Positions 1,813 to 24,146 of a DNA stretch of 31,280 nucleotides are shown here, piece by piece. The first letter of the stretch is position 1. Every line of letters starts with the position of its first letter. The notes under the pieces were generated by a model that did not search any database, was not told the origin of the DNA, and saw only the letters and a list, made by a program, of their open reading frames with translations. A program made the translations under genes and the position numbers. This DNA comes from a virus (Duplodnaviria; Heunggongvirae; Uroviricota; Caudoviricetes). Location: IMG/VR virus record IMGVR_UViG_3300045988_033906, positions 1-31,280 of that record; one strand, 5' to 3'.

Positions 1813-2295
1813 TCACCTGGTCAGCGAATCGTACTGCTTTTCACAGACTCGTCCGGCTTCGGATGCCCGATCAGCGTACTCTGCCAGTTGTCGGTTTCGC
1901 TCGAGAGATTTGCTGAGCACGTCGGCAAGCAAAACACCGGTGTCTGCGGCTGACGGCCCAGAGCCGACAATGGCGTTATACTGCCTGAGCTGCTCACGGA
2001 TGGCAACGAGCTGTTGCTGCAACCTGCCAGCGCGAGCGGCAGCATCAAGAGCATCATTGCGCGCCTGGTCGATCCTCTGCTGCGCTTCACGTTCATTGGT
2101 CGCTTTCTCCTGTTCGTCGTGCTTACGGGCTTTATCATCTTCTGCTTTACGATCTGCCTGCGCCTGAGCATACCCGGCGGCATACTGTCGGTCGCCGTGA
2201 ACATTCCACGCGACCACTCCACCGATAACCAGCGCAGCAAGCATCACTACGATAAGCAACTGTTTCCAGTACGCTTTGACGAATGCCAAGATCAT
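1813..2295 (-). CDS. Rz-like i-spanin (inner-membrane spanin subunit)
   Basis: Last gene of lysis cassette; N-terminal TM segment ([18 protein letters not shown]) followed by charged coiled-coil periplasmic domain; start ATG overlaps endolysin stop (ATGA); contains an embedded lipoprotein frame (Rz1). Confidence 0.7.
1821..2057 (-). CDS. Rz1-like o-spanin (outer-membrane lipoprotein) embedded in Rz in another frame
   Basis: Within ORF-track frame 1821-2240: internal start [17 protein letters not shown]... gives a 78-aa lipoprotein with lipobox LALAGC and Pro/Ser-rich mature part; alternative start at 2096 ([17 protein letters not shown]...) also possible. Fully embedded in Rz, classic Rz/Rz1 architecture. 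Confidence 0.55.
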   Translation of the reverse strand: MMLLMLPLALAGCSNSSLPSVSSSGSITPLSALGRQPQTPVFCLPTCSANLSSETDNWQSTLIGHPKPDESVKSSTIR

Positions 2296-2921
2296 AACGC
2301 CAGCGCCTTACGGGCAGTACCGTAACGCGCCCGCCTGTCGTCGATGCCGTTCTGGCCACCGTTAATGATCTGCGTGACGCGCACCAGGTCGCCGGTGTAC
2401 TTCATGCAACCTTTACTGGCGAAGAACCACGCCGCGCTACGGGCCGCATACTCATCCTGCGCCAGCAGTTCAGGCTGAGCAACCAAATCAACCTTCAGAC
2501 CATTGCCGCAATCCCGGTAGTTGTTCAGACCGGTGATCTGAATAAGCCCGCGCCCTCGGTAATTCCAACCGTCGCCCGGTCCGTTGTTTCCCATGCGCTT
2601 GCTGTACACTAGGTTGGCGATCGCGCGCTGGCGTTCCAAAGGCAGAGACTTCTCATATGTTTTTCGTCCCAGCGCGTTGGCCTGGTCCGGAGTGATGCGT
2701 CCGGCGCGGATAAACCCGGACAGCCCGTTTACGCTGTAGTTGAAGTTCTCCTGTAACCGGGTAAACCCTCCTGACTCATGCCCGACCTGTGCAATAAACA
2801 TCGCCTGGTCATCTGGCTTGGTAATACCAAACTCATTCATTGCTACGGTGATATGTGGATACCAGCGCGTGGCCAGTTGTTCAGTGATGCCGGCTGCGCG
2901 CCGGAACTGGTTAATGTCCAT
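2292..2921 (-). CDS. endolysin, glycoside hydrolase family 19 (chitinase-like lysozyme)
   Basis: 209 aa; motifs QVGHESGGF and [16 protein letters not shown] typical of GH19 phage endolysins; RBS GAGG upstream of ATG at 2921; sits between holin-like genes and Rz. Confidence 0.85.
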
Positions 2922-3219
2922 GTTGAGACCTCGATATTTTGAATATCTGCACGACGTTACCGCGCGTCTTCAGGACGGCGGCAAGCATGACAGCGTTGAT
3001 GATGACCTCTGATAAATCAGCGGCCATTGGCGTGTGATACCAGATTGCGTATGCGGCGCGGACGGGGATACTGGCTGACGCCACGATAAGGAAGTAGGCT
3101 ATCCACCCACCCCACCGGCGATGTTGCGATCCATTTCGCCGGAAGGTTCCGACGCGGATTGCTATCGCAGAACAGATAACCGCATTGGCAATGAGTAAAA
3201 GCAGCTCATGAGTTGTCAT
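2911..3219 (-). CDS. holin/antiholin-like small membrane protein
   Basis: 102 aa with about three hydrophobic segments; RBS GGGGAG before ATG at 3219; overlaps endolysin start by 11 nt; position immediately upstream of endolysin. Confidence 0.5.
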
Positions 3220-3610
3220 CGTCTTTTCTCCCCGGGATTAAATCGCGTGGATTGTCTGAACGGTGATAGAGCCAGATACCAATACGTACTGCGACGATTG
3301 CCGACACGAACGCGCCAGCAGAGAAGACGATCCCTTTCTCGAAAGAGTCCTGCGTGATAGTTGGGATCAGGCTGGCTACGCCGATAAGGATTGATGCAGT
3401 TGGTTTGTAGAAGAGAAGCCCGCATAAAAAGCTGAGCATCGACAGGAGAACCCGGCGGCGTATTGGATACTCAACGGCTGAGGTAATAAATATTACCGCA
3501 CCAGATAAAGCACCAAGCGCCACTTCGGGAGGAACTCCGGCGACAACTGCAGCCAGTGAACCCATGCTAAGCCACTGATTTAAAGACTCACTGGTTAGCT
3601 GGGCTGACAT
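3206..3610 (-). CDS. holin-like membrane protein
   Basis: ORF-track start at 3619 is GTG; first ATG at 3610 (MSAQLTSES...) preceded by GGTGG; 134 aa with several hydrophobic segments; first gene of lysis cassette. Confidence 0.5.
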   Translation of the reverse strand: MSAQLTSESLNQWLSMGSLAAVVAGVPPEVALGALSGAVIFITSAVEYPIRRRVLLSMLSFLCGLLFYKPTASILIGVASLIPTITQDSFEKGIVFSAGAFVSAIVAVRIGIWLYHRSDNPRDLIPGRKDDDNS

Positions 3611-3781
3611 AGTGACCACCGTTTACTGTGCATAAAAACCCCCTTAGTTGGTGAGTTCATCATACACAATAAACCATATATGGAGTAAATTACCTAAGAT
3701 AACTCCTACCAAAATTACCTTTAAGGTGATATGCTCTGTACAATTATTAATATACCGATAAACAAATAGTGAAGAAATATA

Positions 3782-4873
3782 ATGTTTACACCATCAATTA
3801 TTTCTATTGCATTCTCTTTGTCTATAATTATATTTTTTATAGCTTTAACTTATCCTGTTAGGAAATTAGTATATCAAAACGAAAAATTAAACCACTCAAT
3901 TGAAGGGCTCAGGGGTATCGCATGTATACTTGTATTTGTAAATCACTCAGCATGGATGCTGACAAACAATCATGTTGAGTCTGCAAAAATTGATTATACA
4001 AACTTCAATTATTTTGGTAATTTTGGTTCATTTGGGGTTGAATTATTTTTCTGTATAACAGGGTATCTTTTTTCTTCAAAAATAAAAAGTGGTGAGTTTG
4101 ATATAGAATTCTTTGGTAAGAGGATTAAAAGACTGGCGCCAGCTTATTTATTTGTGTCATTAATAACATTTATTCTTTTTATTGTAAAATACAACAATCT
4201 AATAGTTACTTTTGATGATATATCAAGAGTTATACAGCAGATATTTGGGTTTGGTTTTTTTGGTTCTGGAATTAGAGTGCAGGGTAGCACAATAACATCT
4301 CTAAATGCTGTGGTGTGGACGTTACCTTTCGAATGGAAGTTTTACGCAGCTATACCATTTATAGCATATTGCTTTAGAAGAAGAACAATTCTAATACCAT
4401 TATTTATATTTTCATTCTTTGTTATATATTCTCAGTACGCTGAAGATAATACGCTGTGGGTGTACTTTATAACTGGGTTTATCTGTTCTTATATTAAACC
4501 ATGCAAGAATAAAATTCTTTGTTTTGCATGTTCTATATCAGCTCTAGTTCTGATTATATATATTATATTAAGTAACTATTATCAATACAGCGCAATGAGG
4601 GTTATACCTATTAGTGCATTTTTTATTCTTTGCGTTTTTTCCAATCCAAAATGGATAAAAATAAAACCATTATCAATTGCTGGAACTCTTAGTTATAGCA
4701 TATATCTAACACACCAAGCGGCAATGTTTTGCATTGTTAACATAGCAAGCATTTTATTTAATGATTTTGATTTCACAACAGTCCATTTATTAATCTTAGC
4801 AATTATTTCAGCAATTTTAACGATTATCGCATCATTGCTCTTATACTCTAAGATTGAGAGAAGGTTTATCTAA
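3782..4873 (+). CDS. acyltransferase family 3 integral membrane protein (O-antigen acetyltransferase-like, candidate seroconversion gene)
   Basis: 363 aa, about 10 hydrophobic helices; N-terminal AT3 signature with conserved Arg/His (IEGLRGIACILVFVNH); gene is strikingly AT-rich compared with flanking phage genes; opposite strand to the late operon, between tailspike and lysis genes (typical moron slot). Confidence 0.8.
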   Translation: MFTPSIISIAFSLSIIIFFIALTYPVRKLVYQNEKLNHSIEGLRGIACILVFVNHSAWMLTNNHVESAKIDYTNFNYFGNFGSFGVELFFCITGYLFSSKIKSGEFDIEFFGKRIKRLAPAYLFVSLITFILFIVKYNNLIVTFDDISRVIQQIFGFGFFGSGIRVQGSTITSLNAVVWTLPFEWKFYAAIPFIAYCFRRRTILIPLFIFSFFVIYSQYAEDNTLWVYFITGFICSYIKPCKNKILCFACSISALVLIIYIILSNYYQYSAMRVIPISAFFILCVFSNPKWIKIKPLSIAGTLSYSIYLTHQAAMFCIVNIASILFNDFDFTTVHLLILAIISAILTIIASLLLYSKIERRFI

Positions 4874-4877
4874 AAAC

Positions 4878-4908
4878 AAAGCCCCATTATAAACGGGGCT
4901 TTTATTTT
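4878..4908. terminator. bidirectional rho-independent terminator
   Basis: GCCCC (4881-4885) / GGGGC (4894-4898) stem flanked by A-run and TTTTATTTT; serves convergent acyltransferase (+) and tailspike (-) genes. Confidence 0.6.
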
Positions 4909-7018
4909 AAATGTGACAAGTAAAACTTAGTTCTATTGTTGCATTTCCTGTAATTAAATCAGATATTAAAACATCAACTGGGCTGCCAGACCTAAAAATC
5001 CTTCTAAAAAATATTTTACCCCCACTTATGTATCCTTGCACATCAAGAAGGTTTGAATCAGTTCTTATTGTATTGTTTAATATTGGTATAATAGATCCAA
5101 CACAATCACCTTTGAAAGAACTTAAATATGTAGGTAATGATATAGCAAAAGCTAAAGATCCAGTATTGCTGGTGATGTTGCATGATATTGAAAGTCTGCC
5201 AGTAACACTTCTTTGGGTAATTTCATGCCTATAAATCTGAGATGTGTATGTGCAAGGTGCGTTTATTGTTGGGTTGAACCCAGTTGACTGAGGGAAAACA
5301 TAGAAGCTTTGTAAGTTACCACCAGACACAGTGGTATTGATTGGTGTTGCTGAACCAGCAAACACATATACTCCATCATCTTCTATACCAGAAACATCAG
5401 AACTAACTGGTTCTTTAATGTTATTTTCTGTCCCGCTAATATAAAACACCTTTCCATACTTAGGACCATCATTAACATGAAAAAGAACTCTTGGACCAAT
5501 TAGGTTGTTATTGAAACCAGATATTACATACCCAATCCCACCGTTAGATATACTGGCTGGTTGCGTCTTGTCAAGTTTATGCGGGGTGTCAGAATAAAAA
5601 TTAACAACATTATTTGAGCTGCCTCCTAGTTTTAATCCTATCAACATTACGCGTGTTGTTCTTATGCCATCCAGTCCCCATACATGCGTATTAACTATAT
5701 CATTGGCCCCACCTGTTATTTCCATACCGACAGGATAACCAACCACTGTAGTATTAACATACATACTATCAGACGTACGATGCAATATCCCACTAACGCC
5801 AGATGTTCCAAGCTGGTCTTCCGGAGCTACAACTGATGTATTATTGAATTTCCACTCATAACCTTTTTCAACATTAATACCTCCATTTAGCATGTTGAAT
5901 ATTCTTGCGTTATTTATTACAGGACCAACGCCATCAGTACCATAAATACCTATCGCAGAGACAGATGAGTCAGGCTCAATATACAGATTATCAAGTAGAA
6001 CCCTGTTACCAGTCTGAATGGCTGTTATTCCATCATTGTATGGAGCCCTCCAAGCATCATCCTTTATCTCTATAACAACCGTATCAGTAAAATTTTTTGG
6101 AACAATGGAACCGATATTCTCCATTCTCGCTCCACTTTTCAGAACAAGCCGAGAAGATATACATGTTTTACCAATGAATAATACAGCTCTTTTATTATCT
6201 GAAGACCAATCAAGAGCTTGCTGATTAGGAATGGTATCATCATCAATACCATTGCACTTAGCTCCAAATGAACGGTTTGTAATACAATCGGTCAGCACAT
6301 CTTCAACAACTCTAGTTGGAAATCCAGCAGGGCCAAATCCAATCAACCCTGCACCGGTTGGTTTTGCCAGCTCAATTAACACATCGGTGGCGCTACCTGA
6401 TGGGGGTAATGTTGTAAACGGCTGGCCAGCGCTATCAAAAGCAACAATTTTGTTTGCCCTGGAAATCGCATCAGGAAGAGCTTGAATAGCTTCAGGTGTT
6501 CTTAGTGTTTTGTTGAGGTTTGTATCCGCAACGCTATCAACATAATTTTTTGTTGCCGCATCCTGCGGGCGTGAAGGATCTCGCAGGTTTCTGATGTAGT
6601 TATTAAGAGCATCATAATAGTTAGCCACGAACGAAGGCTTTCTGAGGGCCAGACTCAACAAGCTGCGTACCTGCTGTATCAGCATCGTCAGTTTATCAAA
6701 TGCGTCTTCATGCACCTCAGCGAAGAACTTACCCTGGTTGCGCAGATCGGTTTCCTGCGTAACCGGTAGCTCTCTTGATATAGAAATCTGATAACCGTTA
6801 GCCAACGCCTTCGACAGAATTACATTACCACCGTTATACCCTCCCGCCCCGGTAACTGTGTAATCAGTATCAAGAGCAAGAACAGTGATATTTTCATCAA
6901 GGTCAACCACTTGCACTACCAGATCAGATTTCTGGAAAATCCTGAAAGTATACGGAAATGATGTCGTAACGCCGTTACCGGTGTATTCGTTGTGGTCAAC
7001 TTCGGTTGAGACCGTCAT
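4907..7018 (-). CDS. tailspike protein: T7 gp17-like N-terminal particle-binding domain fused to a beta-helix (polysaccharide depolymerase-like) receptor-binding domain
   Basis: 703 aa; N-terminus (MTVSTEVDHNEYTGNGVTTSFPYTFRIFQKSDLVVQVV...DTDYTV) follows the conserved pattern of podovirus tail-fiber N-domains; remainder Gly/Asn/Ser/Thr-rich repeats typical of parallel beta-helix; RBS GGAG before ATG 7018; 3' (C-terminal) half is AT-rich like the adjacent acyltransferase. Confidence 0.85.
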   Translation of the reverse strand: MTVSTEVDHNEYTGNGVTTSFPYTFRIFQKSDLVVQVVDLDENITVLALDTDYTVTGAGGYNGGNVILSKALANGYQISISRELPVTQETDLRNQGKFFAEVHEDAFDKLTMLIQQVRSLLSLALRKPSFVANYYDALNNYIRNLRDPSRPQDAATKNYVDSVADTNLNKTLRTPEAIQALPDAISRANKIVAFDSAGQPFTTLPPSGSATDVLIELAKPTGAGLIGFGPAGFPTRVVEDVLTDCITNRSFGAKCNGIDDDTIPNQQALDWSSDNKRAVLFIGKTCISSRLVLKSGARMENIGSIVPKNFTDTVVIEIKDDAWRAPYNDGITAIQTGNRVLLDNLYIEPDSSVSAIGIYGTDGVGPVINNARIFNMLNGGINVEKGYEWKFNNTSVVAPEDQLGTSGVSGILHRTSDSMYVNTTVVGYPVGMEITGGANDIVNTHVWGLDGIRTTRVMLIGLKLGGSSNNVVNFYSDTPHKLDKTQPASISNGGIGYVISGFNNNLIGPRVLFHVNDGPKYGKVFYISGTENNIKEPVSSDVSGIEDDGVYVFAGSATPINTTVSGGNLQSFYVFPQSTGFNPTINAPCTYTSQIYRHEITQRSVTGRLSISCNITSNTGSLAFAISLPTYLSSFKGDCVGSIIPILNNTIRTDSNLLDVQGYISGGKIFFRRIFRSGSPVDVLISDLITGNATIELSFTCHI

Positions 7019-7121
7019 GTTAAATCTCCAGATAGTTGCAGCACCCGTTGCGCCGCATATCTGGTTATTCTATTACCTGAAAAACCACATATGGATAGAA
7101 AGACTGTAAATACGAATAGAT

Positions 7122-7138
7122 ATTACCTTTCTGGTAAT
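7122..7138. promoter_or_regulatory. perfect inverted repeat ATTACC-N5-GGTAAT (candidate operator), copy A
   Basis: ATTACCTTTCTGGTAAT at 7122-7138; same IR architecture recurs at 23733-23747 and 30377-30393 (and weaker at 30316-30330); about 40 bp upstream of the LexA box. Confidence 0.4.
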
Positions 7139-7176
7139 TTGCAAAACGTGCTGGATAGCAAACAAATTATTTGCTA

Positions 7177-7192
7177 CTGTATAAATATACAG
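7177..7192 (+). promoter_or_regulatory. LexA (SOS) box overlapping probable promoter of the 85-aa gene
   Basis: taCTGTATAAATATACAGtt matches the enterobacterial LexA consensus TACTGTATATATATACAGTA at 18 of 20 positions; contains TATAAAT (-10-like); RBS GGAG at 7202-7205 and ATG at 7214 follow. Confidence 0.65.
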
Positions 7193-7213
7193 TTATTGCA
7201 TGGAGAAGATAAG

Positions 7214-7471
7214 ATGCAGCAGTATCACTATCCACTGGAAGACGGATTTACCGAAAGGATTCACACGCCGGGAGGCGTCAGGTCACTGGTGGAGGGATCG
7301 CACTTGATGAAATTACTCCGGGATCTCGATAAGGATGGATTTAATGTCGATGGCCCACTTGCCGAACTGACTGCACTGATTAACTACGTCACCAGCTCAC
7401 AGATGTCTATGCAGGATCTGCAAACACATCTCGACTATTGTGCCGAACAATTACGAAAACAAACCACATAA
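7214..7471 (+). CDS. SOS-regulated small protein of unknown function (85 aa); candidate antirepressor-type moron
   Basis: ORF-track frame 7091-7471; internal ATG at 7214 has RBS GGAG 8 nt upstream and sits just downstream of the LexA box; MQQYHYPLEDGFTERIHTPGG...; no homolog recognised; opposite strand to the late operon. Confidence 0.6.
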   Translation: MQQYHYPLEDGFTERIHTPGGVRSLVEGSHLMKLLRDLDKDGFNVDGPLAELTALINYVTSSQMSMQDLQTHLDYCAEQLRKQTT

Positions 7472-24069: not shown

Positions 24070-24146
24070 GTGGCATTAGCTCAGCTGGACAGAGCAACCG
24101 CCTTCTAAGCGGTTGGTCGCAGGTTCGAATCCTGCATGCCACGCCA
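24070..24146 (+). tRNA. tRNA-Arg (anticodon UCU), phage-encoded
   Basis: Hand-folded cloverleaf: acceptor GTGGCAT/ATGCCAC (7 bp), D-stem GCTC/GAGC, anticodon stem ACCGC/GCGGT with loop CTTCTAA (anticodon TCT), T-stem GCAGG/CCTGC with loop TTCGAAT, discriminator G, encoded CCA. Confidence 0.85.

Follow-up and report, generated by a model that had tools for sequence, protein, structure and literature searches.

The pairing of a tailspike gene with a gene for an O-antigen modifier is a textbook arrangement, classically connected with seroconversion and superinfection exclusion, and phage phiV10 is the direct precedent on the backbone considered here. The phiV10 oac gene encodes an O-antigen acetylase giving superinfection immunity (PMC9558356), and the phiV10 record annotates it in the same terms: [quoted passage not shown]. 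Oac (OacA) of phage Sf6 and OacB-D of other Shigella flexneri phages are likewise prophage-encoded O-antigen O-acetyltransferases, which consist of an acyltransferase-3 (AT3) domain only and carry R-X10-H and RXXR motifs (PMC9558356). Acting alongside an O-antigen-cleaving tailspike, these enzymes bring about both seroconversion and superinfection immunity (PMC9558356). Here, we describe a comparable locus in a 31,280-nt stretch of DNA (IMG/VR record IMGVR_UViG_3300045988_033906; the whole stretch is referred to as the window), where an AT3 gene and the receptor-binding domain (RBD) of a tailspike share a low-GC segment. This segment, 3733-6491, is probably a host-recognition and host-masking module of a phiV10/epsilon15-like prophage.

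The window contains a phiV10/epsilon15-like (Uetakevirus) prophage beside yfgI in Escherichia coli; bases 1-1800 correspond to the E. coli yfgG-yfgH-yfgI region at 99% identity, and the prophage runs from position ~1810. A minus-strand lysis block of Rz (DUF2514), endolysin, holin, and Phage_holin_8-like genes is followed by the AT3 gene on the plus strand and by the tailspike and virion genes on the minus strand. This arrangement is collinear with Uetakevirus genomes (Rz, endolysin, holin, holin_8-like gene, a variable slot, tailspike, gp19-like gene, and the gene of an 824-aa virion protein), and the flanks of the slot have 85-94% nucleotide identity to phiV10 in the same gene order. The AT3 gene thus resides in a Uetakevirus-like, temperate phage and lies tail-to-tail with the tailspike gene across a 33-nt spacer.

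phiV10 Oac (PhiV10p26) and the tail fibre PhiV10p25 resemble the window pair in slot, convergent orientation, backbone, and AT3-only architecture, and the upstream junction sequence is common to both phages. In contrast, the RBDs are unrelated, and phiV10 targets O157, whereas the window module is linked to O153-type hosts. In Sf6, oac adjoins int, while the AT3 gene of the window adjoins the tailspike gene. The gtrABC modules of P22, BTP1, and related prophages occupy the same position, convergent with the tailspike gene, and have the same presumed role in O-antigen masking, but they act by glucosylation via three proteins, whereas the window module would act by acylation via a single AT3 protein.

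The first-pass annotation, made from the letters alone, had placed a low-GC island at 3640-5300. The island is real, although its extent had been underestimated. The GC content of 3640-5300 is 0.308, whereas intervals of the same size (1661 bp) elsewhere have a mean of 0.502 (standard deviation 0.019, minimum 0.428), which sets the island more than 10 standard deviations below the mean; the lowest 1661-bp interval of the whole sequence starts at 3661. The quantitative GC and codon calculation thereby confirmed the compositional discontinuity. GC at third codon positions (GC3) of the tailspike gene drops from ~0.44-0.54 over codons 1-150 to 0.16-0.34 over codons 151-703, and the island therefore starts at ~3620 and reaches ~6500 rather than 5300. 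Over 3620-6500, GC is 0.346 against a background of 0.504. The AT3 gene has a GC of 0.296 and a GC3 of 0.236; GC3 is thus ~0.24 in AT3 and 0.25 in the RBD compared to 0.42-0.62 in backbone genes. Local blastn against phiV10 returned matches at 3005-3732 (85%) and 6492-7471 (88%) and none between them, indicating that the exchanged segment contains, besides the AT3 gene and the terminator, the tailspike sequence from codon ~176 to its end. The compositional edges match these two homology breakpoints.

A low GC content might also be an amino-acid effect of a hydrophobic membrane protein, in which case it would say nothing about foreign origin. The AT3 protein is indeed rich in Ile (15.7%) and Phe (11.6%), which have AT-rich codons. 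Nevertheless, GC3 is equally low in the soluble RBD, all 12 arginine codons of AT3 and 16 of the 20 in the RBD are AGA/AGG compared to 41 of 301 across nine backbone genes, the edges of the island coincide with the breakpoints 3732 and 6492, and the low GC of the module holds in every carrier backbone examined. GC3 and the breakpoints rule out an artefact of amino-acid bias, and we give this explanation practically no credence. The prophage also encodes a tRNA-Arg(UCU) (24070-24146, plus strand; Rfam 71.7 bits, also called by ARAGORN). As AGA/AGG make up 28 of the 32 Arg codons in the module, this tRNA may aid in translating the imported tailspike end.

The assignment of the AT3 gene to the acyltransferase-3 family, proposed in the first-pass annotation, was borne out by a PF01757 search of 3782-4873, which gave 111.3 bits (cut-off 31; E 6.6e-32) with residues 37-355 covering profile positions 1-325 of 326. 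The protein also matches phrog_3333, “O-acetyltransferase” (E 7e-43), and contains this single Pfam domain in 363 aa with no fused SGNH domain. Hallmarks of the AT3 family are an R/K-X10-H motif in the first transmembrane helix and RXXR in the first cytoplasmic loop (PMC9558356). R44-X10-H55 (LRGIACILVFVNH) and R114-I-K-R117 are invariant in two alignments, A2 and A4, of 18 and 22 sequences, respectively. The same holds for F89/G94, W185, Y188, and Y308, while H311 is invariant in A2 and nearly so in A4. The AlphaFold model is all-helical (pLDDT 88, pTM 0.88), as in a polytopic membrane acyltransferase fold; Kyte-Doolittle hydropathy was too crude for counting transmembrane helices, and the AlphaFold secondary structure was used instead. 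By membership, the open reading frame (ORF) encodes a true AT3-only acyltransferase. The gene is intact, with nonsynonymous versus synonymous divergence (pN versus pS) of 0.005 versus 0.03 relative to the locus L006 and 0.22 versus 0.72 relative to E. coli TST3.

The window AT3 is not an ortholog of a characterised Oac and belongs to a separate AT3 lineage. This lineage is rare: among 5.8 billion database sequences, it accounts for 24 clusters at E<=1e-10, and its DNA was matched in only 4 of 5426 complete E. coli genomes. Compared with Sf6-type Oac, the lineage has an extra N-terminal helix before the Pfam domain. This hydrophobic helix (aa 1-29, 3782-3868) is also absent from phiV10 Oac, and nucleotide homology to the AT3 alleles of TST3 and the locus L036 starts only at codon 30 (3869).

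The tailspike is composed of two parts with separate histories. Over residues 1-215, identity is 83% to phiV10 and 92% to the locus L012, although the RBD of L012 is only 27% identical; the N-terminus thus goes with the backbone and the RBD with the cassette. The RBD (aa 216-703) has 87% amino acid identity over 488 aa to TSP3 of phage AV101 (WJJ54145.1). Its structure model (pLDDT 80-95) retrieved Det7 gp208 (E 1.3e-10) as well as the beta-helix depolymerases of HK620, Sf6, and CBA120 (TSP2/TSP4) in Foldseek. As modelled, the RBD is thus a depolymerase of the beta-helix type, attached to a modular N-terminal anchor. Members of this RBD family occur behind at least four N-terminal anchors, namely the Uetakevirus type, the P22 head-binding domain (PF09008), PF18668, and the T7-tail domain PF03906 together with PF18668. 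One partial match bears another annotation: P0124 (437 aa), described as a LysR-family D-serine deaminase activator, shares 72% identity with half of the RBD, which points to a tailspike fragment that was fused, or left as a remnant, in a chromosome.

The relationship to AV101 TSP3 gives the tailspike a likely receptor. On E. coli O153, AV101 TSP3 gives rise to translucent zones or halos, and it inhibits the infection of an O153 host by AV101 (PMC10791037). AV101 is a virulent Agtrevirus (Ackermannviridae) whose TSP3 RBD is similar to that of the window; it differs in having another N-terminal anchor and no functional modifier gene. A further line of evidence comes from the O-antigen loci of strains carrying the RBD. 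In strain 2017C-4173W12, the RBD is found on a siphovirus-like tail, and its wzy has matches of 99.9-100% identity in 80 of 5426 complete genomes, including CE-O153H30, corresponding to a background frequency of 1.5% for O153-type wzy. All five complete E. coli genomes with a whole RBD and an assessable O-type (2017C-4173W12, Ecol_545, C1, FG31-1, and PRO_A-1504-6M-A) carry O153-type wzy, and two genomes with RBD fragments are likewise among the O153-type wzy matches listed. Membership was read from the 60 of these 80 matches that were listed, and two further RBD carriers fall outside the assessed set. The association between RBD and wzy is strong given the 1.5% background and agrees with the AV101 experiment. 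Taken together, the window tailspike most likely recognises and cuts O153-type O-antigen, i.e., that of the in-silico O153/O178 group. The O153 and O178 clusters are 99.9% identical according to one study and distinct according to another (PMC4732683), so the in-silico label “O153” needs caution.

Two of the carriers have damaged O-antigen loci. E. coli TST3, the best complete-genome carrier of both AT3 and RBD, was rejected as a source of an O-type, as its whole galF-gnd cluster is deleted: at 1834272-1836612 (L020, NZ_CP154406.1), the galF-to-gnd cluster is lost, leaving wcaM-IS1-gndA. Despite the cluster loss, both the AT3 gene and an O-antigen-specific tailspike persist in a degraded P22-like prophage of TST3. 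In 2017C-4173W12 (L018, locus 1871-4260), the O-antigen flippase gene is truncated beside an IS1 insertion, which indicates that this strain may be rough, though a prophage with the RBD and gtrABC is present.

A central question is whether AT3 and RBD travel together. Wherever the context of an AT3 lineage member was read, the gene is tail-to-tail with a tailspike gene. This applies to Uetakevirus-like, P22-like, and sipho-like prophages, the position being either the Uetakevirus slot or the downstream side of a tailspike that is P22-like or anchored by PF18668. The pair as such occurs on a Uetakevirus-like backbone (window), a P22-like one (TST3), and a siphovirus-like one (L036), all three of them unrelated. 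Relative to the window, AT3 and RBD have amino acid identities of 99% and 99% in L006, 65% and 83% in TST3, 52% and 75% in L008, and 40-41% and 26-27% in L012, L013, and L015; in L009 (AT3 46%) and in L016 from Proteus (AT3 41%), the RBD has no match. The divergence of the two is thus rank-correlated across loci. Dating of the co-transfer by synonymous divergence was abandoned, since, apart from the closest pair, pS had reached saturation in both genes.

AV101 itself holds a trace of this linkage. Downstream of tsp3 (L001, OQ973471.1, 2998-3203) lies a 206-nt in-frame AT3 fragment, encoding the last 68 residues, together with the terminator. With 99.5% identity to the AT3 allele of the TST3 prophage, this fragment reads from its sequence as a direct footprint of joint AT3 and RBD capture from a prophage. 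The AV101 record annotates a “hypothetical protein” on the opposite strand at this position.

Alternatively, the slot might be a permissive moron site at which AT3 and tailspike arrived separately, so that their adjacency says nothing about a common target. The slot is without any gene in all four other Uetakevirus prophages sampled. The tailspikes of TST3 and L032 are 99.3% identical in nucleotides, and the homology ends 10 nt inside the tailspike 3' end, after which AT3 follows in TST3 and gtrABC in L032. The locus L036 combines a window-like RBD (95%) with a TST3-like AT3 (94% to TST3, 67% to the window). Set against this are the recurrence of the same AT3 lineage and RBD family on three backbones, the AT3 fragment captured by AV101 along with the RBD, the rank-correlated divergence, the equal GC3 (0.24 and 0.25) and AGA/AGG bias of both halves, and the nature of the alternative neighbour, as gtrABC is an O-antigen modifier too. 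Separate arrival at a mere hot spot therefore seems to us unlikely, although it is the most serious of the competing explanations. The gtrABC swap and the mixed alleles of L036 do indicate that AT3 and RBD are two linked, separable sub-modules joined at the terminator, and the modifier next to the RBD can be exchanged by itself. Thus, the earlier claim that the pair had been acquired together is upheld by the three backbones and the AV101 relic, and is qualified by the gtrABC exchange behind a 99.3%-identical tailspike and by the reassortment of alleles. The slot can also be filled differently: in L028-L030, a Uetakevirus prophage with an RBD of 56% identity holds there a further AT3 of 342 aa, which has 28% identity to phiV10 Oac, and BLASTP gave no significant match between this protein and the window AT3.

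In the prophages examined, the neighbour of the RBD is an O-antigen modifier, either AT3 or gtrABC, the latter in most P22-like carriers of the RBD family. Such alternation would be anticipated for a neighbour that serves to mask the particular O-antigen recognised by the RBD. It is the best contextual evidence that AT3 acts on the O-antigen of the tailspike. Along with the phiV10 oac gene in the same slot, the AT3 family membership, the adjacency to the tailspike, and the parallel divergence, it favours the O-antigen as the target, and the window AT3 would accordingly acylate the O-antigen and exclude superinfecting phages. The serotype-conversion module of a temperate podovirus put forward in the first-pass annotation is accordingly supported by the phiV10 slot, the AT3 domain, the homology to an O153 tailspike, and the break in GC and homology, while its function is derived by analogy.

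AT3 proteins are diverse in their substrates, with WecH acting on enterobacterial common antigen, OatA on peptidoglycan, and IcaC on poly-N-acetylglucosamine (PMC9558356), and the window AT3 sequence is too distant from characterised members for substrate prediction. It may hence acylate enterobacterial common antigen, colanic acid or capsule, peptidoglycan, or the lipopolysaccharide core, or transfer a non-acetyl group, and be unrelated to the tailspike receptor. This we consider improbable, and clearly more so than a permissive site: the lineage is confined to prophage tailspike neighbourhoods, AT3 is interchangeable with gtrABC at the same position, and phiV10 Oac in the same slot acts on the O157 antigen.

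Several points weigh against an O153-specific masking module. The window AT3 has 33% identity to phiV10 Oac over just 95 aa, and tblastn against 50,697 phage genomes found only distant AT3s of <=30% identity, the nearest phage-database match being Sf101 OacB (30% over half the protein). Given this distance from phiV10 Oac and deposited phage AT3s, the substrate and the acyl group are extrapolated. The link to O153 is drawn from a homologue and from other carriers rather than from the O-type of the window's own host, the specificity of the RBD could differ from O153 at 87% identity, and AV101 TSP3 also forms small halos on O8 (PMC10791037). O-acetylation is not known from the published structure of the O153 antigen, and a literature search returned nothing on the matter. 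Finally, a generic sigma-70 scan of 3620-3781 revealed no plus-strand promoter.

The two convergent genes share a predicted hairpin in their 33-nt spacer, and the claim of a tail-to-tail arrangement around a bidirectional terminator was correct in this respect. The hairpin at 4878-4902 lies between an A-run and a T-run, which places a U-tract after the stem on each strand, and folds with -14.0 kcal/mol on the plus strand (z -4.0) and -20.9 kcal/mol on the minus strand (z -5.6), as predicted for a bidirectional intrinsic terminator. The terminators of TST3 and AV101 have another stem sequence but the same hairpin. An Rfam scan of the module region identified no non-coding RNA. Upstream of AT3, an extended -10-like element, TGaTATGCT, sits exactly at the junction between backbone and cassette and may serve as the AT3 promoter. 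Its position is kept among AT3-bearing relatives, and L013 has a perfect TGaTATAAT there. An inverted repeat, ATTACC-N5-GGTGAT (3714-3730), overlaps this element at the left recombination junction of the slot. It recurs in the AT3-bearing relatives L002, L006, L012, L013, L015, and L028, and of the two AT3-less prophages aligned, L021 has it and L023 does not. The repeat is a candidate operator, recombination site, or promoter. The features of the locus are listed below.

Features of the low-GC locus and its flanks (positions in the window; a dot marks features without a strand).
Feature	Position	Strand	Remarks
Phage_holin_8-like membrane protein gene, first of lysis block, backbone flank	3206..3619	-	PF16931; 85% nucleotide identity to phiV10p27
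Candidate extended -10 element TGaTATGCT for AT3 gene	3727..3735	+	Alignment A5 of nine Uetakevirus-like loci
Exchangeable low-GC receptor module (AT3, terminator, RBD), replaces phiV10 oac and RBD segment	3733..6491	.	blastn, GC, Arg codons
AT3-only membrane acyltransferase, 363 aa, putative O-antigen O-acyl(acetyl)transferase	3782..4873	+	
Predicted bidirectional intrinsic terminator hairpin, common to both convergent genes	4878..4902	.	Terminator scan, fold
Tailspike, whole gene	4907..7018	-	
Tailspike receptor-binding/depolymerase domain, aa 216-703, predicted right-handed beta-helix and C-terminal beta-sandwich	4907..6373	-	
Tailspike N-terminal virion anchor, aa 1-175, backbone part	6492..7018	-	88% nucleotide identity to phiV10; GC3 ~0.44-0.54

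On this basis, a lysogen might operate the module as follows. In the lysogen, the AT3 gene would be transcribed rightward, perhaps from TGaTATGCT, ending at the shared hairpin. By analogy with Oac of Sf6 and phiV10, the protein would take an acyl group, probably acetyl, from cytoplasmic acyl-CoA through its membrane domain, with the conserved Arg and His of R-X10-H and the RXXR motif participating in the transfer, and the acyl group would end up at the periplasmic face, attached to a hydroxyl group of an O-unit sugar. On the virion, the C-terminal 490-530 residues of the tailspike would bind and cleave the host O-antigen to reach the cell surface, and the modified O-antigen would be a poor substrate for tailspikes of the same specificity. 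Seroconversion and protection against superinfecting phages would follow for the lysogen, and newly released virions would avoid being trapped. The composition and limits of the module, its domain and motifs, the folds, the synteny, the joint occurrence in several phage types, and the link to the host O-type were observed; the nature of the acceptor sugar and of the acyl group, AT3 expression in the lysogen, and exclusion are all deduced from homology and context.

The locus adds to the known arrangement a rare AT3 lineage as a candidate O153-modifying enzyme, and it points to O153-type O-antigen as the likely receptor of a so far uncharacterised prophage tailspike. It also offers the case of one RBD family served by two alternative masking systems, AT3 or gtrABC, and, in the AV101 relic, a concrete footprint of transfer from a prophage to a virulent phage. 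In-silico serotyping ignores prophage-encoded modifications, and lysogens with such modules may resist despite having the “right” genotype, which matters for the choice of phages or depolymerases against O153 strains producing extended-spectrum beta-lactamases or belonging to enterotoxigenic E. coli. More speculatively, AT3 or gtrABC modifiers could create unrecognised O153/O178 subtypes, and AT3, terminator, and RBD could form a mobile “key and lock-changer” cassette moving from prophages into virulent phages, an idea for which we see only a small chance. If true, modifier-made subtypes might feed the disputed O153/O178 typing and might render some genotypically “right” strains resistant to phages such as AV101.

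Two gene starts in the flanks probably need revision. The Phage_holin_8-like gene probably starts at ATG 3610 (134 aa), as the homologues are 134 aa in all relatives. For the 126-aa ORF at 7091-7471 (plus strand), an 86-aa gene from 7214 is more likely; its phrog_450 match begins at residue 42, and homologues in relatives, including phiV10p24, have 85-86 aa.

The prophage is not restricted to the yfgI site. In L006 (GCA_025399405.1), Hcp/Tlde1 genes of a type VI secretion system take the place of yfgI next to the same prophage end, and an integrase gene is its neighbour in L005. A 99%-identical tailspike (P0056) is annotated from Enterobacter cloacae. These observations indicate that the element occurs at other sites and possibly in other hosts.

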